Assembly: GCF_988243305.1 (NCBI RefSeq)
Contig: NZ_OZ547136.1
Direction: 5' to 3' (one strand)
Length of the DNA stretch: 64,000 nt
Each line of letters begins with the position of its first letter. The stretch's first letter is position 1. This document shows, piece by piece, positions 8,910 to 54,000 of this stretch. Position numbers and translations under genes: made by a program. The notes under the pieces are model-generated. The model saw nothing but the letters and a program-made list of their open reading frames with translations. It had not been told where the DNA came from and ran no database searches.

Positions 8910-9482
8910 TTGACACTGTCATCGCAACATTATCTGGTGATCACTGCGTTGGGTGCCGATCGCCCTGGAATTGTGAACACCATCACCCGTCATGTCAGTA
9001 GTTGCGGCTGTAATATTGAAGACAGTCGCCTGGCGATGCTGGGAGAAGAGTTCACGTTTATCATGCTGCTTTCCGGTTCATGGAATGCCATTACTCTGAT
9101 TGAATCAACGTTACCGTTGAAAGGTGCCGAGCTGGATCTTTTAATCGTGATGAAGCGCACGACGGCGCGTCCGCGTCCGCCAATGCCAGCATCTGTCTGG
9201 GTTCAGGTCGATGTGGCAGACTCCCCGCATTTAATTGAACGCTTCACAGCACTTTTCGACGCGCATCATATGAACATTGCGGAGCTGGTGTCACGCACGC
9301 AACCTGCTGAAAATGAACGGGCTGCGCAGTTGCATATTCAGATAACCGCCCACAGCCCCGCATCTGCGGACGCAGCAAATATTGAGCAAGCGTTCAAAGC
9401 CCTATGTACAGAACTCAATGCACAAGGCAGTATTAACGTCGTCAATTATTCCCAACATGATGAACAGGATGGAGTTAAGTAA
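8910..9482 (+). CDS. gcvR: glycine cleavage system transcriptional repressor GcvR (tandem ACT domains)
   Basis: ORF 8844..9482; the conserved N-terminus (M)TLSSQHYLVITALGADRPGIV begins at a TTG codon at 8910-8912; upstream ORF residues look non-coding. Confidence 0.8.
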   Translation: MTLSSQHYLVITALGADRPGIVNTITRHVSSCGCNIEDSRLAMLGEEFTFIMLLSGSWNAITLIESTLPLKGAELDLLIVMKRTTARPRPPMPASVWVQVDVADSPHLIERFTALFDAHHMNIAELVSRTQPAENERAAQLHIQITAHSPASADAANIEQAFKALCTELNAQGSINVVNYSQHDEQDGVK

Positions 9483-37956: not shown

Positions 37957-38307
37957 AGATGCTCAGCAGAATCCCCCACATCCTGAAGGAGGTGTATTCA
38001 GACAGGCATCCCACCTGACTTCGAATGATGATTATTCATCACTATAGAGAGCATTGATTCTAAGTGTCATATGAAAGTTCCAATTGATATATATCAAACA
38101 AAATAACCCTGATTAATGAATTATTACGTTTATCATGTTAATTCATCATTATTACATCATCATTGTAAATAATTAAATTAACTTCCATAACATTAAAATA
38201 TGTATCCACTGACGCTTTTTTACATAACGAAGAATTGACCATTTTGTCCTGTTGTGCCTTAATGTAAGTACCGTCCACTGCGTGGGACATACTTCAAGGA
38301 ACCTTTT

Positions 38308-38499
38308 GTGAGTCAGGCAACCAGTATGCGAAAACGACACCGATTTAACAGTCGCATGACCCGTATCGTACTGCTCATCAGCTTTATCTTCTTCTTTGGC
38401 CGTTTTATCTACTCGTCCGTCGGTGCATGGCAGCACCATCAGAGCAAAAAAGAAGCTCAGCAATCCACACTCTCCGTCGAATCACCGGTACAACGTTAG
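38308..38499 (+). CDS. yfgG: small membrane protein YfgG
   Basis: 63-aa ORF with one TM helix in an AT-rich region; matches the K-12 gene order. Confidence 0.6.
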   Translation: MSQATSMRKRHRFNSRMTRIVLLISFIFFFGRFIYSSVGAWQHHQSKKEAQQSTLSVESPVQR

Positions 38500-38809
38500 C
38501 GGTTACCTTCTCCACTTTTACAGAACATAACGGCACCTCGCTGTCGGATGCTTTTGCTCTTTGGGATTATCAAAGCGGCAGATATTCTTTCATCTTAAAT
38601 TTTACGTCTTTGTCCTGACTGATGTTTATCCTGTTTGGCTGCGAAATAAATATAAAATTAACACATATATTTTAATGATGTATTTTTATAAATTATTTCC
38701 CACATGAATTTTAATAAATTTAATCTATTCCTTTATACGCAATACATTTACTTTCCTCTTTTGATGATCTTAAATATCTTATTTTTCGTAATGTGTATAA
38801 CAAGGAATA

Positions 38810-39328
38810 GTGATGAAATTTAAAAAATGTCTTCTGCCTGTGGCAATGTTAGCGTCATTCACTCTGGCAGGATGCCAGTCAAATGCTGATGATCATGCCG
38901 CCGATGTTTATCAAACCGATCAACTGAATACCAAACAAGAAACTAAAACCGTTAATATTATTTCCATTCTTCCCGCAAAAGTTGCCGTAGACAACTCCCA
39001 AAATAAACGAAACGCACAAGCCTTCGGCGCGCTTATTGGTGCAGTCGCTGGCGGTGTTATTGGCCACAACGTCGGGTCTGGCAGCAATTCCGGAACGACG
39101 GCAGGTGCAGTTGGCGGCGGAGCTGTTGGCGCGGCAGCGGGTTCTATGGTGAATGATAAAACCTTAGTGGAAGGTGTTTCTCTAACGTATAAGGAAGGCA
39201 CCAAAGTGTATACCTCCACCCAGGTGGGTAAAGAGTGCCAGTTTACGACAGGTTTAGCCGTTGTTATTACCACGACGTATAACGAAACGCGTATTCAGCC
39301 AAATACCAAATGTCCTGAAAAGAGCTAA
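38810..39328 (+). CDS. yfgH: outer membrane lipoprotein YfgH (glycine-zipper)
   Basis: 172-aa ORF with lipobox LAGCQS and a Gly-rich glycine-zipper region. Confidence 0.8.
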   Translation: MMKFKKCLLPVAMLASFTLAGCQSNADDHAADVYQTDQLNTKQETKTVNIISILPAKVAVDNSQNKRNAQAFGALIGAVAGGVIGHNVGSGSNSGTTAGAVGGGAVGAAAGSMVNDKTLVEGVSLTYKEGTKVYTSTQVGKECQFTTGLAVVITTTYNETRIQPNTKCPEKS

Positions 39329-39343
39329 TAATCAGGAGGAGTC

Positions 39344-39883
39344 ATGAAGAAAGTTTTTCTTTGCGCCATCTTAGCCTCCTTAAGCTATCCGGCTATCGCC
39401 TCATCATTGCAGGATCAACTCTCTGCTGTCGCAGAAGCGGAACAGCAAGGTAAAAATGAAGAGCAAAGGCAGCATGACGAATGGGTCGCGGAGCGCAACA
39501 GGGAAATCCAGCAAGAGAAGCAACGTCGCGCAAACGCCCAGGCCGCGGCTAATAAAAGAGCGGCAACGGCAGCGGCGAATAAGAAAGCTCGTCAGGATAA
39601 ACTGGACGCCGAAGCCTCTGCGGACAAAAAACGCGATCAAAGTTATGAAGATGAGCTACGCAGCTTAGAGATTCAGAAACAAAAACTGGCACTGGCGAAA
39701 GAAGAAGCCCGCGTTAAGCGAGAAAACGAATTTATCGATCAGGAACTGAAGCACAAAGCTGCGCAAACCGATGTGGTGCAATCTGAAGCTGACGCAAACA
39801 GAAATATGACTGAAGGCGGTCGCGATCTGATGAAAAGCGTGGGCAAAGCAGAAGAGAACAAATCGGACAGCTGGTTTAATTAA
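39344..39883 (+). CDS. yfgI: periplasmic protein YfgI
   Basis: 179-aa ORF with a signal peptide and a charged coiled-coil-like body; RBS aggagg upstream. Confidence 0.8.
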   Translation: MKKVFLCAILASLSYPAIASSLQDQLSAVAEAEQQGKNEEQRQHDEWVAERNREIQQEKQRRANAQAAANKRAATAAANKKARQDKLDAEASADKKRDQSYEDELRSLEIQKQKLALAKEEARVKRENEFIDQELKHKAAQTDVVQSEADANRNMTEGGRDLMKSVGKAEENKSDSWFN

Positions 39884-39923
39884 TCGATGTAAGTAACTTC
39901 AAGCCTATAATTCTTGAAGATAA

Positions 39924-39954
39924 AAAACCCTCTGTAGTAACAGAGGGTTTTGTT
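39924..39954 (+). terminator. intrinsic terminator after yfgI
   Basis: aaaccctctgtagtaacagagggttttgtt: 10-bp stem, 6-nt loop, T-run. Confidence 0.7.
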
Positions 39955-40210
39955 CATTCATAGTGCAGGGATCAAAATCATTCCCACTCAGCTATCAATG
40001 AGAAAATAAAATATAAATAAATCAATGCCTTGAAACAAACCACTTAGCAGATACCACGAAAAATACCATGTCTCAATAATAGAGCTGTCTACAGGCTGTT
40101 CAGACGAACAATATGGCCGCTCTACTCCTAATAGAGTCCTTAGCTCGGTCACATCACTAATTTCAACATAGATGTGAACAAAATGAGGCATCAACGCACC
40201 TATTCAGTTA

Positions 40211-41725
40211 GTGTATTTGATATCGTATGTGGCAACAAAAAATGGAGTTACAATCTTGAAAGTAAGCGAGTTATCTAGCCAAATTGGCCGACTTTACGGC
40301 TTAAACAACATCAACATAATTATGGGCCGAAACGGTGCGGGAAAAAGTCGTTTCCTTCGTGATATCGAACAAACAATCAGCCAGAACAAGCAGCAATTTT
40401 ATGTCCGGTATGTAAGTCCAGAGCGAGCAGGATCGTTCAAGCGTGATGGCACCGTCCTCACAAATATGAGCGACAACCCCGAATGGCTGAGGCACACTCG
40501 GGCAGTTAATCAGGCAAGCAACTTCAAAGCTGCATCGGCTATGCTATTTCGCGAGGCCGAGACGCTTTACTTACGTCGACTTGCCAATACTCCGGAAATT
40601 CGAACTGATCTAACGCGAAACTTTCAGACAGACCGATTAAGTAAAATTAATCAGCTTCTCACTAACATTTCGCTCGAGATGGGTAATGTCGATTATGAGT
40701 TTCGATCACTTGTAGATGGTCAGATTATTGATCCGGCCCAAATCAGTAGCGGTGAATCGGAAGCGGTTGCATTAGCCGCGGAAATCATCTATTTCTTCGA
40801 CACAATAGATCCGGAGAAATTCAACGTACTCCTCCTCGATGAGCCTGATGTACATCTGCACCCCGACCTCCAAGCTAGACTGGGCAAGCTGATAATCAGT
40901 ATGCTCGACGAATTTAGAACACACGCGAACAGTATTGCCATATGCTTATCCACCCATAGTTCCCCGCTCGTCTGTTCTCTTGCCGCCTCCCCATATGTAT
41001 CAATCGGCACGAAGAGCTTTGCAGTGAATGAAATCTCATTGATACCGGCCAGCGATGAACTTCGAAAGATTGCACCATTCTTCGGGCACCCCCTATCGCT
41101 TTCTCTTAGCGAAGACGCTGCATTAATTTTGGAAGGAGAGGACGACGAACGAGTCTGGCAACAAGCGGCCAGAACATCACAGGGTCGAATAAAAATCTTT
41201 CCCGTACTAGCAGGTAGCGTAGATCAACAGAGTCAACTTGAGGATTTTTGCGTAGACCTCCTTAGTACACTCTATGACAATCCAATCGCCTTTTCCCTTC
41301 GTGATGGCGATGGTGTAATCAACGAGTCGCTTGAACATCGCCTACCTCTTAAACGCTATCGCTTACGATGCTACGCTATCGAAAATGTTCTTTTGACTGA
41401 TTCATGCCTTGCAGTAATGAATGTTACATGGGTGGAATTTGTAGACGCAGCCAAAAAATGGGTTGAGGATAATCAAACACACTCCGACATAGCGTTGATT
41501 GCAGAACTAATGGAATCGAACGACCGATTGCGTCACAAGAAGATCAAGAAAATCCGCCAACTCGTCTGTGCTATTGTTGAGTGTAAAAAACCTTGGGAGG
41601 TAGTAGTTGGACAAGCAATCGGGGCATTGACCAGAGAAGACCTTGAAAACTCGAATATGTTGATCGATTTTCTTGGAGGAGAGATGGTCAGCGACGTCAT
41701 CTTCAGGGACGCAATAAACCCATGA
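40211..41725 (+). CDS. ABC-type (AAA_21-like) ATPase with C-terminal TOPRIM/DUF4435-like acidic region; candidate OLD/PARIS-like anti-phage nuclease (accessory)
   Basis: Walker A GRNGAGKS, signature-like ISSGESEA, Walker B/D-loop LLLDEPDVHLHPDLQ, H-loop LSTHS; C-terminal about 200 aa carry LEGEDDE and RDGDG acidic motifs; no TM segments; probable true start TTG at 40256 preceded by ggag. Confidence 0.55.
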   Translation: MYLISYVATKNGVTILKVSELSSQIGRLYGLNNINIIMGRNGAGKSRFLRDIEQTISQNKQQFYVRYVSPERAGSFKRDGTVLTNMSDNPEWLRHTRAVNQASNFKAASAMLFREAETLYLRRLANTPEIRTDLTRNFQTDRLSKINQLLTNISLEMGNVDYEFRSLVDGQIIDPAQISSGESEAVALAAEIIYFFDTIDPEKFNVLLLDEPDVHLHPDLQARLGKLIISMLDEFRTHANSIAICLSTHSSPLVCSLAASPYVSIGTKSFAVNEISLIPASDELRKIAPFFGHPLSLSLSEDAALILEGEDDERVWQQAARTSQGRIKIFPVLAGSVDQQSQLEDFCVDLLSTLYDNPIAFSLRDGDGVINESLEHRLPLKRYRLRCYAIENVLLTDSCLAVMNVTWVEFVDAAKKWVEDNQTHSDIALIAELMESNDRLRHKKIKKIRQLVCAIVECKKPWEVVVGQAIGALTREDLENSNMLIDFLGGEMVSDVIFRDAINP

Positions 41726-41740
41726 GAATGACCTGATACT

Positions 41741-42136
41741 ATGACCACGATTGATCCGCCCTCATGGTATCAGTATTTATTTTATAACCCGCCTCTCAAT
41801 ACACCAAGAGATTGCGGTAAAGTGGAGCAGCATGATTACCAGCTTTATCTGGCGATAAATGATATTGAGCATACGAAAACGAAAGCAATGTCATCTAAGA
41901 CCAATAGTATCTGCGAGCAGTTCCATAAAACGATACTGAACGAGTTTTATCAGGTGACGTTCCGCAAAAAGTTATATGATGATCTTGAAGCATTACAATC
42001 GGTTCTTGATGAATGGCGGGTTCACTATAATAATGAGCGAACCCATCAGGGAAAAATGTGCAGTGGCCGAACGCCGATGGAAACGTTACTTGATGGAAAG
42101 CACATCTGGGATGAGAAAAACTTAAGCCAGATGTAA
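41741..42136 (+). pseudogene. remnant of a DDE (rve integrase-core) transposase, C-terminal fragment
   Basis: 131-aa ORF containing ...TNSICEQFHKTILNEF...WRVHYNNERTHQGKMCSGRTPMETL, the characteristic C-terminal segment of rve-type transposases; no N-terminal HTH or full DDE triad. Confidence 0.6.
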
Positions 42137-42229
42137 TCTGACAGATACCTTTATAAATAGCCGGTAATTGTCAGATCAGGTCTGATCTTATACAACTTAA
42201 CTGTGTTATGAGCAATACTGAGGATAGAT

Positions 42230-43000
42230 ATGGAACCAGAGAAATTTGCTGAAACTGCAATAGGATTTACCAAAAGCCCTCTTGGTATCATTGCACTCTT
42301 TATTGTTCTCGTTTATGGATTTGCCTCTTTCGTCGTTGGCTTTGGTAATGGCTTATCAGAGCATATAGCTCCCCTTATTTATTTCATGGTTTTCTTTCCT
42401 GTCATTGTGTTTCTTGGCTTTCTCTGGCTTGTTGCGAAACATCATAATAAGCTTTACGGGCCGTCAGATTTCAAAGATGAAAATAATTTTTTAAGAGCGC
42501 AAATAGCTACAGCAGCATCATTGACCGCCGCCACAGCAAAACAGCCTGAAAATAGTGCAGGGGTCACTGAAAGCCAACTGCGAAAAATCGTCAACGTTGT
42601 ATCCAATGCAAAACGGCAGAGTAAGCATGAAAAATGGCGAAATCGTATTTTATGGGTGGATGATCGACCAGAAAATAATGTTTACGAAAGACAGGCATTT
42701 GAGGCACAGGGAATAGAGTTCGCTTTAGCTCTTTCAACTGACGAAGCCTTAGAATTGTTAAAAACAAATAAGTTTGCAGCTATTATTTCGGATATGGATC
42801 GCAAAGAAGGGGCGCAAGAAGGTTATGTCTTACTAGAAAGATTACGCGCAATGGGAGACAAAACTCCTTTTATGATCTATGCGTCCTCAGATCTACCAGA
42901 GCACAAGAAAATGGCGAGAGAAAGAGGTGCAATTGGCTCCACTAATCGAGCAGAAGAACTCTTTCAAATTGTCATGGGTGCGATTACCAATGGCTCATAA
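42230..43000 (+). CDS. membrane-anchored stand-alone receiver (REC/CheY-like) domain protein (accessory)
   Basis: ATG preceded by gagga; two predicted TM helices near the N-terminus; C-terminal about 120 aa align by eye to CheY (ILWVDDRPEN / ISDMDR / TPFMIYASS); AT-rich codon usage. Confidence 0.55.
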   Translation: MEPEKFAETAIGFTKSPLGIIALFIVLVYGFASFVVGFGNGLSEHIAPLIYFMVFFPVIVFLGFLWLVAKHHNKLYGPSDFKDENNFLRAQIATAASLTAATAKQPENSAGVTESQLRKIVNVVSNAKRQSKHEKWRNRILWVDDRPENNVYERQAFEAQGIEFALALSTDEALELLKTNKFAAIISDMDRKEGAQEGYVLLERLRAMGDKTPFMIYASSDLPEHKKMARERGAIGSTNRAEELFQIVMGAITNGS

Positions 43001-43220
43001 CAAAGCCATTAAATTCGCCCCCTACGGCTACGGTTGCCGGGCGCTCACAACGGCCAGTATCTCATTTGTCGATTTGATCGATCTCATTGTAAGCACTTCC
43101 GGCTAGACTATTTTGGAATACCGCCATTTTGTTGGTAATGGCTTTTATCTTTAGGCCATAGCCGATGTTATAGAGTTACGGCCTTAAAAATAGAAGTCAT
43201 ACACTCAATGAAAAACCAAT

Positions 43221-43250
43221 AAAAAATGCCAGTCAGCAAACTGACTGGCA
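43221..43250 (-). terminator. intrinsic terminator of guaA
   Basis: On the minus strand tgccagtcagtttgctgactggcatttttt: 10-bp stem plus a U-run immediately after the guaA stop. Confidence 0.7.
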
Positions 43251-43294
43251 TTAAAGTTAGTTGGAAAGGCTTAATTTACTATTTATAGCCAGTC

Positions 43295-44872
43295 CTACTC
43301 CCACTCAATGGTAGCTGGCGGCTTGCCGCTGATGTCATACACCACGCGGGAAATACCGTTCACTTCATTGATAATGCGGTTGGAAACGCGACCGAGGAAG
43401 TCATACGGCAGGTGCGCCCAGTGTGCGGTCATAAAGTCGATGGTTTCGACAGCACGCAGAGAAACAACCCAGTCATACTTACGACCATCGCCCATTACGC
43501 CAACAGAACGTACTGGCAGGAAGACGGTGAACGCCTGGCTGACTTTGTCGTACAGGTCCGCTTTACGCAGTTCTTCAATGAAGATGGCGTCAGCACGGCG
43601 CAGCAGGTCACAGTACTCTTTCTTCACTTCACCCAGAACACGAACGCCAAGGCCTGGTCCCGGGAACGGGTGACGGTACAGCATGTCGTACGGCAGGCCC
43701 AGCTCCAGACCAATCTTACGCACTTCGTCTTTGAACAGCTCTTTCAGCGGTTCAACCAGGCCCATCTTCATCTCTTTCGGCAGGCCGCCCACGTTGTGGT
43801 GAGATTTGATGACGTGTGCTTTACCGGTTGCAGAAGCAGCAGATTCGATAACGTCAGGGTAGATAGTGCCCTGCGCCAGCCACTTCACGTCTTCCAGTTT
43901 CAGCGCTTCTTCATCGAATACTTCAACGAAAACGCGCCCGATGATTTTACGTTTTGCTTCCGGATCATTTTCGCCAGCCAGCGCTGACAAGAAGCGATCT
44001 TCTGCCGGTACATGAACAATGTTCAGACCAAAGTGATCGCCAAACATATCCAGAACCTGCTCTGCTTCGTTGAGACGCAGCAGGCCGTTGTCGACGAATA
44101 CGCAAGTCAGGTTTTTACCGATAGCGCGGTGCAGCAGCATTGCAGTCACGGAGGAATCCACGCCACCAGAGAGGCCGAGGATCACTTTATCGTCGCCTAC
44201 CTGCTCGCGGATGCGAGCTACGGCGTCGTCGATAATTTTCGCTGGCGTCCACAGGGCTTCACACTGGCAGATATCACGCACAAAACGCTCCAGCATGCGC
44301 ATACCCTGGCGGGTGTGAGTCACTTCCGGATGGAACTGTACACCATAGAAGCGTTTTTCTTCGTTAGCCATAATGGCAAACGGGCAGCTTTCGGTGCTGG
44401 CTACGGTGACGAAGTCGGACGGGATAGCGGTAACTTTATCGCCGTGGCTCATCCAGACATCGAGCAGCGGTTTACCGTCTGCAGTCAGCGCATCTTCGAT
44501 ACCGCGAACCAGTGCGCTGTCGTTTACGACTTCAACCTGCGCGTAGCCAAATTCACGTTCGTTAGAGGCTTCAACGTGACCGCCCAACTGCATTGCCATG
44601 GTCTGCATGCCATAGCAAACGCCGAATACCGGTACGCCTGCTTCAAAGACATACTGCGGCGCACGCGGGCTGTTTTCTTCGGTGGTGCTTTCCGGGCCGC
44701 CGGAAAGAATAATGCCGCTTGGGTTGAAGTCACGAATTTGTGCTTCTGTCACATCCCACGCCCACAGTTCGCAGTAAACACCCAGTTCACGCACGCGGCG
44801 CGCAACCAGTTGAGTGTACTGAGAACCGAAGTCCAGAATGAGGATGCGATGCTTATGAATGTTTTCCGTCAT
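43295..44872 (-). CDS. guaA: GMP synthase (glutamine-hydrolysing)
   Basis: 525-aa ORF with an N-terminal class-I glutamine amidotransferase and a C-terminal ATP-pyrophosphatase (SGGVDSS). Confidence 0.95.
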
Positions 44873-44940
44873 TGACGCTTATTCCGAGGCAAGTGAAACA
44901 GATAATATAAATCGCCCGACATGAAGTCGGGCGAAGAGAA

Positions 44941-46407
44941 TCAGGAGCCCAGACGGTAGTTCGGGGACTCTTTAGTAATGGTCACGTCGTGAACGTGGCT
45001 TTCCTGAATGCCCGCACCGCTGATACGTACAAACTCCGCTTTAGTACGCAGTTCGTCGATAGTACCACAGCCGGTCAGGCCCATACAGGAGCGCAGGCCG
45101 CCCATCTGCTGGTGAATGATCTCTTTCAGGCGACCTTTATAGGCCACGCGACCTTCGATACCTTCCGGCACCAGTTTGTCGGCAGCGTTGTCGCTCTGGA
45201 AGTAACGGTCAGAAGAACCTTTGGACATCGCACCCAGAGAGCCCATCCCACGGTAAGATTTGTAAGAACGGCCCTGGTAGAGTTCGATTTCACCCGGAGA
45301 TTCTTCAGTACCCGCCAGCATGGAACCCACCATTACCGCGCTTGCACCTGCGGCGATAGCTTTGGCGATATCGCCTGAGAAACGGATACCACCGTCAGCG
45401 ATAACCGGAATACCGGTGCCTTCCAGGGCTTCTACGGCGTCAGCAACGGCGGTGATCTGCGGAACACCTACGCCAGTCACGATACGAGTCGTACAGATAG
45501 AGCCAGGGCCAATGCCGACTTTAACCGCGCTGCAACCAGCTTCTGCCAGAGCGCGTGCCCCCGCAGCTGTTGCCACGTTGCCGCCGATGATTTGCAGATC
45601 CGGATATTTAGTACGAGTTTCACGGATACGCTGCAGAACGCCTTCAGAGTGACCGTGAGAGGAGTCGATCAGCAGAACGTCAACGCCTGCGGCAACCAGC
45701 GCGTCAACACGCTCTTCGTTACCCGCACCCGCGCCAACCGCTGCACCAACACGCAGACGGCCTTGCTCGTCTTTACAGGCGTTCGGTTTACGTTCTGCTT
45801 TCTGGAAATCTTTCACGGTGATCATGCCGATCAGGTGGAATTCGTCATCAACCACCAGCGCTTTTTCAACGCGTTTTTCGTGCATTTTTGCCAGCACAAC
45901 TTCACGGGCTTCACCTTCACGCACGGTGACCAGACGTTCTTTCGGCGTCATGTAAACGCTAACCGGCTGGCTCAGGTCGGTAACAAAACGTACGTCACGA
46001 CCGGTGATAATACCCACCAGTTCGTTTTCTTCGGTAACGACCGGGTAGCCCGCAAAGCCGTTACGCTCGGTCAGTTCTTTCACTTCGCGCAGCGTCGTGG
46101 TTGGCAGAACAGTCTGCGGGTCAGTCACCACGCCAGATTCGTGTTTTTTCACACGGCGAACTTCTTCCGCCTGGCGTTCAATGGACATATTTTTGTGGAT
46201 AAAGCCGATACCGCCTTCCTGAGCCAGAGCAATAGCCAGGCGCGCTTCCGTTACGGTATCCATTGCTGCGGAAAGCATAGGGATATTCAGACGAATAGTT
46301 TTCGTCAGCTGGGTGCTGAGGTCAGCAGTATTCGGCAGAACGGTAGAATGAGCAGGAACGAGGAGAACGTCGTCAAACGTCAGAGCTTCTTTAGCGATAC
46401 GTAGCAT
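44941..46407 (-). CDS. guaB: IMP dehydrogenase
   Basis: ORF 44941..46476; start at the internal Met ([21 protein letters not shown]), 488 aa; CBS pair and catalytic [11 protein letters not shown] loop. Confidence 0.95.
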
Positions 46408-51000: not shown

Positions 51001-54000
51001 CGTACACATTGGTTACCAGGCCTATAGAATCATCCTGCTTTACCGTAAACGTGGCTGTCCCGTCTGCACCTGTCACCGCATAAAGGGAGATTGATGGAGT
51101 ATCCACTCTTGCCGACGTTCCCGCAGCGTTGATTACAGAGATAGTTCTGTTCGACAACTGTACATTCTGGCGATTTGTCGATCCTTCACGTTTGAGAATA
51201 AACGGAACATTTGGTACGACATTTCCCTGCGCATCTTTTGTCACCACGCGAATCACCGCGTCGTCACCTTTTTTCCGTTTTAGTGCGCTGAGGGTTTCGT
51301 CAACTTTGACAAATTGTGTCGCATCGTTCGCTTCAACAATAATGTGGCTGGTCACCGCCACTGGGGTAGCCCGACAACTTAGCAGTCCTATACTGCTTGA
51401 CATGACCTCCGTTCCATCACCCGTTTTTAACGAAACCGCTTTAAAATTAAATGTTTGAGTGTAATAGGCAACAACCGTACTGGAGATATAGGCGCGTGAT
51501 ACAGGCCATCCCGTAACGTCATGTATTGGCACGTAACCTTCATCGGCATACAGTGACTCCAGCTCACTTTCAATCGGGACATATCCTGCACCGCAACCAT
51601 TTACAGATGTGTTGTTCGACTGGTCCGGCGAGAACAGTGACCAGCTCTCTCCATCTTCCTGAAAAGAGCTTCGACTGGTTGTAACGGAAAGCTCATCTTG
51701 CAATAACGGTCTTTTATAAATAAGCCCGCCTGCACCGGTCATCGTTTCGGCCATATGCCCCCAGAATTTTGCTTTAGGGGTATCGGGGCTGGTTATCACC
51801 GTAAAGACTACCGGAAGCATTGATTTTACGTTATTATCTGTATCCAGCATGGCGGTCAGTTCGGTTTTTAAACCCGTGGTATTGTCCTGTTTCAGTGCAA
51901 GTGTTGTCGTACCATCTGCGCCGGTAACGCCATAAATCAGTGCTGTTGTTGAGGAAAAATTACTCTGCGTGTTACCCCAGGCATCCGTCACGATGAGCGC
52001 GCCTGCTGTCACCGTTGTAGACGCATTTGCCCGATTGACGCTAAGGTTACGTTTAAGCGTAAACGCGGTATTTCCCACCGGGTTACCCTGCGAATCTTTA
52101 GTGGTCACGCGAACCACGACTTCTTCCCCTTTTTTCGCTTTGACAACATTATTCGTACTGTCAAATTTTGTGGGGTCCGCAGCCTCAAGAACGATTTGGC
52201 TAGCCTTGACGATCGGCGTCGTCTGGCAGGTAAGCAGTTCTTTTGTGGCCGATGGAATTATCGAACTGGTGCCTGAACTGAGATTGACGGCCTTGAAGTC
52301 ACGCTGTTCCAGACTACTGCTGGCTGTCGTGCTGGTAAGGTAACTTGAGGCGACGGGCCAGCCCTGAACCGTTTTCATCGCATTGCCACGGTTGGCTTCA
52401 TACAATGACTCCAGCCCGGCCTGAGAGGGAACATATTCACTACCACAACCATTAGAGGATGTGCTTGTCGCCTGAGTTTGGGTAAATTGCGCCCAGTCCT
52501 CATTATCTTCTGCAATCGCTGTTCGACCCGACGTACTGGATAACTCTTTCAACAATAATGGGCGTTTAAAGACCGTTCCATCCGCAGCCGTCACCGTTTC
52601 CGGCATATGCCCCCACATTTTCGCTTTATTGCTGTCCGGGCTGGTGACAACGGTAAAAATGGTATCGAGGGTCGCTTTTTTCGTTGTGTCTGAATAGAGC
52701 GCAGCGGTCAGCGACGTTTTTGTGCCATGGGTATCCGGGCGGGTAATAGTGAGAATTTTAGTGCCATCGCTGCCGGTCATCGCGCTGTATGCTGCGGCGG
52801 TATCATTGAGCGAAGTTTCATCCGCCAGGCCACTATTGATCACAACCGGCGCAACCAGCGCATCACCGCTACCGGCAATGTGTTTTTCGTTTGATCGTGT
52901 ATAACCATCGCCACGCTTCAGGGTAAAAGGCATATCACCCAATGGATTGCCCTGAGCATCTTTTACCGTCACCTTCACCTGTAGCGTTTCGCCTTTTTTC
53001 AGCTTCGCCGCATTTGCTGCCGCGTTCCACTGCGCCGGGTCCACCACTTCCAGCGTAATGCTGCTGGCAGGATTGTTAGCCGTCGTCAGGCAACTGACAT
53101 AAACCGCCGTGCTACCGCCAACGGTCCGCGCGCCATCGTTGAGGGCTATGGTGTAGTAATGCGGCACCTGATCCGCGGGCGAACTGCTCCAGTAGGGCTG
53201 ACGCTGCGTTGGCCAACCGTGTACCGTTTGAACGGCGTTACCGCTGTTAGCATCATAGAGCGCGTTAAGCTGGGAACGGCGTGGGAGCATATTGGCACCA
53301 CAGCCACCTTTACTGGTGCTGGAAGTGTTGGCCTGGCTAACGCGCGACCACACTTCGTTATTTTCCGTTAATGTGCCGTCCGGGCTGGACACTTCCGCAG
53401 CCAGCCGGGGTCGGGCAAAGGTTAATGCATCGACGGTAATCGTCTCATCCATATGCCCCCACATCTGCGCGCCAACCGCATCCGGACTGGTGAGCGTAGT
53501 GAAAATCACATTGTAATTAACAGTATTGGGAATATAGGAGTTTACAGGCGCAATATTCAGCGGCGTCGCTAAGCCCACACCTTGCGGTTGCTTAATTTCA
53601 ACAGTAGCAAAACCCTGCGCATCCGTAGTACCTGCATAGACTAAAGACGGTTGCGATGTTCCGTAGAGCGTGCCATTCATCTCGATTGCGCCGCGGGTTG
53701 GATCATCGAAACCCGTGGTCTGCCCCTGACGATTTTTCCCCATATCTTTCGTGATGGTGAACGCGGTATACGGCACGGGCGCATTATTCAAGGCATTAAA
53801 GGTGCGTACCGTCATGGTAATCGTTTCACCCACTTTAGCCTGCGCTCTGCTGCTTGTGGAAACATCATGATCGGTGTTCGCAGCAATCTGGGCGACCATC
53901 TCATTGCCCGAACAAGAAAGGTAGTTTTGCTTAAAGCCGGAATAGGTGTCGATGTTGCCCGTGGCCAGGTTCACCGACGCGTGCGACGTCTCTTCCACCG

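Follow-up and report, generated by a model that had tools for sequence, protein, structure and literature searches.

What is a piece of a transposase gene doing in a rare accessory island of Escherichia coli, and did it bring the island there? The question is raised by a 64,000-nucleotide stretch of an E. coli chromosome (contig NZ_OZ547136.1 of RefSeq assembly GCF_988243305.1), called the window hereafter, in which all coordinates are given unless another contig is named. Here, pdeF, yfgG, yfgH, and yfgI are located on one flank, and guaA, guaB, and xseA on the other, of a 3.3-kb island (39991-43298) inserted between yfgI and the 3′ end of guaA. The cargo of the island is an ATPase gene, an open reading frame (ORF) of 131 codons, and a gene whose product has a receiver domain. 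The island is carried by 27 of 5,426 complete E. coli genomes, with 99.6–100% identity, and nearly all the remaining ones possess an "empty" yfgI-guaA spacer. UPEC132 (CP040456) and FDAARGOS_1259 are examples of strains with the island. Made from the letters of the DNA alone, the original prediction took the 131-codon ORF as the remnant of an insertion sequence (IS) that identifies the insertion as IS-associated, accounts for its acquisition, and could affect expression of the receiver gene.

The ORF and Its Transposase Identity

The ORF is present at 41741-42136 on the plus strand, as predicted, with an ATG start and a product of 131 aa. The ATPase gene ends at 41725 and the ATG of the ORF is at the 16th base after that stop, in agreement with the 16 bp that had been given. 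In BLASTP, 97 of 107 residues (91%, E = 3e-72) are identical to an intact IS481-family transposase of 346 aa encoded on the Salmonella plasmid CP054717. Since residues 25-131 of the ORF match residues 240-346 of the intact protein, only the C-terminal part of a transposase is kept, just as had been proposed. NF033577, the IS481-family transposase model of NCBIfam, gives E = 9e-23 over profile positions 206-283 of 284, and the IS3 model gives E = 4e-9. The score against NF033577, 81 bits, is below the full-length cutoff of 224 bits because only one third of the protein is left. In Pfam, the ORF matches rve_3 only (E = 8e-10). The domains of the intact CP054717 transposase are HTH_29 at residues 11-74, rve at 162-267, and rve_3 at 256-319; thus, the fragment is devoid of the DNA-binding domain and of the part of the core that holds two aspartates. 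The full DDE triad is absent from the window, as the HTH and the 162-239 region of rve are missing and only the glutamate is kept, in a mutated motif. On this motif, the original prediction was fair, with one correction. It spoke of a corrupted catalytic region, and the motif is indeed mutated: four of the ten amino-acid replacements fall within it and convert SPQTNGICERFH into SSKTNSICEQFH (PQTNGICERFH in the intact protein, SKTNSICEQFH here). However, the glutamate itself is retained (CEQFH vs. CERFH). We take this residue to be the catalytic one from the PQxxGxxE motif of the family (cf. E152 of HIV-1 integrase).

At the DNA level, the homology covers 41811-42194 on the plus strand. Over these 384 nt, the alignment is free of gaps and has 93.75% identity; its partner is positions 818-1201 of the closest intact relative found, the IS on CP054717 (complement of 51849-53049; L004, 1682-2882). 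The intact IS is 1,201 bp long, with 26-bp inverted repeats of the TGT type (TGTATTAGTCGCGACTTGATCTGACA / TGTCAGATCAGGTCTGAGCTAATACA) and a 7-bp target duplication. Its right inverted repeat is preserved as TGTCAGATCAGGTCTGATCTTATACA at 42169-42194 and is the sole terminal repeat remaining in the window, in which no left inverted repeat was found at up to three mismatches. Searches of the full 64 kb with the intact transposase and IS by tblastn and blastn returned nothing besides residues 240-346 and IS positions 818-1201, and no intact transposase reads through the region in any frame of the window. Description of the fragment as a decayed remnant rather than an active element is therefore borne out, and its family can be named: it is a 5′-truncated IS481-family element with one inverted repeat. 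It resembles this family in the 91% protein identity over the last 107 residues, in the TGT...ACA right repeat, and in having NF033577 as its best NCBIfam model. It differs in that it keeps only the 3′ third, without left repeat, HTH, and the D-D of the DDE triad, that four substitutions have accumulated in its PQTNGxxER motif, and that no target duplication is readable. Relatives annotated as "IS481 family transposase" are found on many plasmids of E. coli, Salmonella, and E. albertii, and 605 of the 5,426 E. coli genomes have matches to related ISs, mostly on plasmids. The ORF is an ordinary transposase relic, and this much is already known: PGAP/RefSeq flags it as a pseudogene, [quoted passage not shown]

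The first 24 residues of the ORF have no transposase homology. Instead, the DNA from 41726 to approximately 41808 has homologues in Pseudomonas aeruginosa, Enterobacter bugandensis, and Vreelandella glaciei, which lie past the end of the ATPase gene and are non-coding. Codons 1-24 derive from this non-coding arm of the ATPase module, so that the ATG of the ORF and its in-frame fusion are accidental. By sequence comparison, the 131-codon ORF is a chance chimera, to which the ATPase-module arm contributed codons 1-24 and the C-terminus of a transposase codons 25-131. The frame of the first 24 codons (41741-41810) is open also in P. aeruginosa (L025, 7489-7557), where it comprises 22 codons, MTALGSPSWYQYLFYAPPLNMP followed by a stop, and 15 of these 22 residues are identical to those of E. 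coli. This shared short frame could be a small conserved peptide or a mere effect of conserved att-arm DNA.

Five Versions of a Decaying Fragment

Besides that of E. coli, versions of the fragment lie next to guaA in Klebsiella pneumoniae, K. aerogenes, Kluyvera sichuanensis, and an enterobacterial contig (L015). All five chromosomal versions have the same right junction of the IS, ATACA/ACTTAAC, 35 bp before the ATG of the receiver gene. One right junction common to all of them shows a single IS insertion event, 35 bp upstream of the receiver gene, in an ancestor from which the copies of E. coli, Klebsiella, Kluyvera, and L015 descend. The 5′ ends differ. In E. coli and the two Klebsiella species, the fragment begins at IS position 818; in Kluyvera, it begins at approximately 799 and is joined directly to the chromosomal guaA terminator hairpin, and in L015, it begins at approximately 720.

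Comparison of these versions also bears on the possibility that the 131-aa ORF encodes a working protein, for example a truncated integrase-core regulator. The 27 E. coli genomes and K. pneumoniae do have an open frame here, as such a function would have it. However, these copies are 98–100% identical to one another, so that the open frame is uninformative, and in all three more distant versions the corresponding frame is broken: by a 12-nt deletion and a TAG in Kluyvera, by a TAG and a 1-nt deletion in K. aerogenes, which has also lost 5 nt at the tip of the repeat, and by a TGA and frameshifts in L015. In addition, dN/dS is 0.24 between the fragment and the closest intact copy, eightfold above the 0.03 between two intact copies over the same codons, and the replacements cluster in the catalytic motif. 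The N-terminus that such a protein would have comes from non-coding DNA, and the ORF has no PADLOC match. We regard a domesticated function as extremely improbable. Between E. coli and Kluyvera, the fragment retains 84% identity, in line with the dS of 0.16 for the receiver gene (dS of guaA, 0.71), and by this measure the fragment diverges at the neutral rate. Among its segments, the inverted repeat is the least conserved, with 46% invariant columns across the five chromosomal copies. The best-conserved non-coding stretch is the 35-bp spacer between the IS end and the receiver ATG (42195-42229, plus strand), which contains a GAGGA ribosome-binding site and has 83% invariant columns in the same five copies.

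The Island Edges and the guaA Attachment Site

If the fragment is inert, how did the island arrive? The locus of an E. coli strain with an empty site (L006) aligns to 39400-39990 and 43299-43699 of the window, with an overlap of 9 bp. A 9-bp direct repeat, TCCCACTCA, occupies 39982-39990 and 43299-43307. The left copy is an attL-type core, with the original guaA 3′ end left on the yfgI side, and the right copy is an attR-type core within the guaA 3′ end. The reverse complement of the repeat, TGAGTGGGA, contains GAGTGGGA, the core of GIsul2 and PIME elements. GIsul2 integrates into the 3′ end of guaA at this core (PMC9376610). Approximately 1,000 PIME elements have been described, whose subfamilies can use an attB adjoining guaA, and they have defence cargo (bioRxiv 10.64898/2026.01.12.698999). 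In the island-bearing window, the last guaA codons are re-supplied by the element: the gene ends with GAG TAG (43295-43300, minus strand), vs. GAA TGA at the empty site (L006, 581-589). The right arm of the island (43001-43298), which includes this new stop and a terminator-like hairpin for guaA at 43225-43252 (minus strand), is 85–95% conserved along with the receiver gene in Klebsiella, Kluyvera, and L015. A search of Rfam with 38000-45000 at E ≤ 0.1 gave no matches.

The same site has received other DNA. In E. coli KOr019, a prophage (L007, 9292-18291) lies in the same yfgI-guaA site and is joined to the chromosome exactly at 39990. Its content includes lysis genes, a tailspike-like glycosyl hydrolase, and a YafO toxin. 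An origin of the island from this prophage was considered and rejected, as there is no DNA similarity between them beyond the core and a short arm motif. On another contig (L009), the receiver module is followed by a relaxase-bearing element that also uses this core as its junction and whose first 95 nt are similar to the left arm of the island, including the motif ACCAYGAAAAAYRCCAT. This motif and an inverted half, CATGGTAT, recur in the arms of the island, a P. aeruginosa module, the relaxase-bearing element, and the prophage, all of which are at the guaA core (window, 40053-40069 and 41763-41773; L025, 7550-7570; L007, approximately 9385-9405). Such arm motifs may be binding sites of an integrase or excisionase.

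Between E. coli and K. pneumoniae, the island is 95–99.6% identical and guaA 87%, with the break at the guaA boundary (43295). The core repeats, the shared site, and this break of identity are characteristic of horizontal spread and of site-specific insertion of the integrase type, and they are not what transposition leaves. On this point, the original prediction does not stand. It is conceivable that an IS brought the island, as a composite transposon, by one-ended transposition, or through IS-mediated recombination, and that the fragment is what remains of the vehicle; indeed, the remnant sits in a rare accessory island, and related intact ISs are common on plasmids of E. coli and Salmonella. 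However, the fragment is internal, between the two genes, and what bounds the island is a direct repeat from the 3′ end of guaA whose sequence is that of a known integrase core. The window has no second IS copy, and without left repeat, HTH, and the two catalytic aspartates, the fragment is unable to transpose or to be the vehicle of the island. In P. aeruginosa, Enterobacter, and Vreelandella, thus in three other genera, this guaA site holds the ATPase module with neither an IS nor the receiver gene. Moreover, of all the island DNA, only the IS fragment has relatives in the plasmid and phage collections. The notion of an IS as the vehicle is thus already largely refuted, and we consider it very unlikely. 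As judged from its junctions, the island most likely came in through an attachment site at the 3′ end of guaA that integrases are known to use. Since the island itself has no integrase, we infer this site-specific acquisition from the junctions together with the published behavior of related elements. Spread between E. coli and Klebsiella would have occurred by integrase-mediated site-specific recombination, with the integrase possibly supplied in trans, and not by transposition. Homologous recombination via the flanking guaA and upstream genes could be another route of the island between close relatives.

With GIsul2 and the PIMEs, the island shares the chromosomal site, the core, the re-supplied guaA 3′ end, and cargo that resembles defence genes. 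It differs from them in the lack of int, alpA, repA, and trbJ/trbL (the PIME core comprises integrase, alpA, replicase, trbJ, and trbL) and in its size, 3.3 kb vs. 15–22 kb for PIMEs. Thus, the island does not qualify as a PIME and could at most be a remnant, or a passenger dependent on such integrases.

The ATPase Module and the Receiver Gene

The ATPase gene (40256-41725, plus strand) encodes an ABC/OLD-type ATPase of 489 aa, annotated by RefSeq as "AAA family ATPase." Mechanical ORF calling places the start at a GTG at 40211 (504 aa), whereas RefSeq and the homologues (484–491 aa) point to the ATG at 40256. The protein matches AAA_15, AAA_21, and ABC_tran in Pfam, and an EGEDD motif is found in a region with a weak match to DUF4435. 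In PADLOC, there are weak matches to PDC-M01A (1e-17), AriA, and AriAB, and the score against the NCBIfam model of PtuA is 31 bits vs. a cutoff of 500 bits. A PDB sequence search returned only generic receiver and retron-ATPase similarities. As an ABC-type ATPase with weak PADLOC matches, the protein appears akin to those of PARIS (AriA/AriB) and to OLD/ABC-ATPase defence proteins; however, its scores are far under family level, and a partner gene is absent. In K. pneumoniae, a copy of the island ATPase gene (L018, 2766-5496) is split by an IS3-family insertion into halves of 214 and 274 aa, which suggests that the ATPase is dispensable there.

The gene is the center of a module of approximately 1.9 kb (39977-41810) that consists of the core, a conserved left arm, the gene itself, and approximately 75–85 nt past its stop, without an integrase. 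The left arm (39991-40255, plus strand) carries the arm motif ACCACGAAAAATACCAT at 40053-40069, and its homology starts directly at the core: 74% identity in P. aeruginosa (L025), 84% in Enterobacter (L022), and 72% at the left end of the relaxase-bearing element of L009. What remains of the right, non-coding arm in the window is a stub (41726-41810, plus strand), recognized by blastn, with the inverted arm-like motif CATGGTATCAG at 41763-41773. Its blastn homology reaches 41799 in P. aeruginosa (L024/L025) and 41785 in Enterobacter. In P. aeruginosa and Vreelandella, the right arm runs approximately 90 nt further, to the core and guaA. Indeed, in P. aeruginosa (L025) and V. glaciei (L032), the ATPase module alone lies against guaA, and in E. 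bugandensis (L022), it is followed by other downstream content. Among Alphaproteobacteria, the ATPase coding sequence alone is shared (70–79% conserved), and guaA is not nearby.

The receiver gene (42230-43000, plus strand) encodes a membrane protein of 256 aa. Two membrane helices are predicted at its N-terminus, and NCBIfam and PDB matches place a receiver (REC) domain in its C-terminal part, at residues 137-235; homologues carry a precomputed PF00072 assignment. PADLOC gave no match to this protein. The gene is 65–99% conserved across very different bacteria, and it is always solitary and in many contexts (L013, 5400-6900; L016; L026). In Vibrio cyclitrophicus (L013), VCR-like repeats of approximately 121 nt lie on both sides of the homologue, which appears to be an integron cassette, and in Acidithiobacillus, it belongs to a cassette-like array with toxin-antitoxin genes. 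It is found beside TniQ/TnsD (Tn7-like) genes on another contig and as a chromosomal singleton elsewhere. Downstream of the receiver gene in the window, no attC was recognized, and homology to distant copies covers only -25 (42205, within the spacer) to the stop. In Kluyvera, the module of IS fragment and receiver gene lies against guaA without the ATPase gene. The ATPase and the receiver protein were also considered as a conserved pair, and this was rejected, as each is found alone in many contexts.

How the Two Modules Were Joined

In the E. coli island, the ATPase module ends early: its shortened right arm runs straight into IS position 818, and there is no core at the join. The IS fragment would then mark a deletion junction between the ATPase and receiver modules, and the different 5′ ends of the fragment would reflect separate deletions. 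In the version of E. coli and Klebsiella, such a deletion would have removed the end of the ATPase module, an internal core, and the first 817 bp of the IS together with any DNA on its left side, joining the rest of the IS to the cut-off right arm. A genome with an intact IS upstream of the receiver gene, an IS-free ancestor, or an undeleted tandem was searched for, and none was found; the junction of IS and receiver gene, as the exact pattern ATACAACTTAACTGTG-N6-GCAATACTGAGGAT, had 0 matches in a scan of 100,044 species-representative genomes. Because an undeleted intermediate was not found, it is from the present-day junctions that we infer the order of events, be it a deletion after tandem integration or another rearrangement.

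Alternatively, the ATPase module may have recombined directly into an IS that was already truncated, either by an integrase at a secondary site or by illegitimate recombination. The GIsul2 integrase does accept degenerate secondary sites (TGGG or GGGA) at low frequency (PMC9376610), and the ATPase arm is cut within or beside its arm-type motif. However, neither a GGGA nor a TGGG-type core exists at the junction (41808-41811), and among the three versions, E. coli has the least of the IS, as would be expected from further loss rather than from insertion. We therefore hold direct joining to be quite unlikely. In our preferred reading, which we consider probable as a whole, the fragment is the inert 3′ third of an IS481-family element, the ORF over it is accidental, the two modules would have been joined by deletion, and the island, which sits in the guaA att site, would have been spread by an integrase.

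A close parallel for these modules is in GIsul2. Its integrase also moves an integrase-less, att-flanked sub-unit, CR2-sul2, by both excision and integration; like the island, this unit is short integrase-less DNA between att-core copies, stacked at attB (PMC9376610). The ATPase modules of P. aeruginosa and Vreelandella, approximately 1.9 kb each and placed directly between the core and guaA, would resemble CR2-sul2. The E. coli island differs from it in that no internal core separates its two modules. As integrase-less att-flanked DNA, the island may also be likened to "CIMEs," the cis-mobilizable elements beside ICESt1 of Streptococcus thermophilus. From these parallels, one might go further and regard the island as a fusion of two integrase-less, att-armed micro-modules that ride on GIsul2/PIME integrases in trans to the guaA attB. 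We offer this extension tentatively and consider it possible, though doubtful.

A Possible Effect on the Receiver Gene

The remaining part of the original prediction is an influence of the fragment on its downstream neighbor. IS481 elements are able to activate neighboring genes (PMC6161684). The fragment might accordingly have been retained since it drives or modulates the receiver gene, through an internal promoter, a hybrid promoter, or the 5′-UTR. Indeed, no enterobacterial copy of the receiver gene beside guaA has kept less than 384 nt of the IS 3′ end, even though the 5′ cut falls at three different points. A sigma-70-like site (TTGATG-17-AATAAT, 42006-42034) is directed toward the receiver gene and is largely conserved. 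That the receiver gene appears as an integron cassette in Vibrio is also in favor of such a role, given that integron cassettes are usually without their own promoter. However, simple linkage to a selected gene explains the retention of the fragment, which diverges neutrally, as seen from its 84% identity vs. the receiver-gene dS of 0.16. Promoter-like sites in the region are fewer than in shuffled sequence (4 vs. 7.6). The terminal repeat, which would be the seat of any hybrid -35, is the least conserved segment, the one that has lost 5 nt in K. aerogenes. In Bordetella pertussis, the Pin and Pout promoters of IS481 are both at the left end (PMC6161684), and here the left end with their counterpart is deleted, so that only a hybrid promoter via a -35 in the inverted repeat would remain. 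On balance, a promoter role of the fragment looks unlikely from its sequence, and we give the same grade to its retention for the sake of receiver-gene expression. Between the ATPase and receiver genes (41725-42230), no plus-strand terminator is predicted; thus, read-through from the ATPase gene is a possible alternative source of transcription. RNA folding of 42110-42240 yields a hairpin over the transposase stop and the inverted repeat, with z = -1.6, which is not significant.

Implications

As a gene, the fragment is a routine transposase pseudogene, and its surroundings, a guaA attachment site with stacked integrase-less modules, are more interesting than the pseudogene itself. Its value is that of a marker: with a right junction common to all versions and 5′ cut points that differ by lineage, the rearrangements of the island can be dated and put in order. 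In the same way, the ATPase and receiver genes are to be seen as two independently travelling genes united secondarily, not as an ancestral operon, and "ATPase + response regulator" should not be mistaken here for a system of two genes, such as one for defence. The context of the fragment is one more case in which the 3′ end of guaA serves as a landing site common to IMEs, prophages, and apparently integrase-less remnants. If the modules do ride on integrases in trans, they would be minimal "hitch-hiker" cassettes, comparable to CR2-sul2 and possibly for defence, that are distributed across Gammaproteobacteria (Pseudomonas, Vreelandella, Enterobacter, Klebsiella, and E. coli), and the IS fragment would record the deletion that welded the ATPase and receiver modules together.
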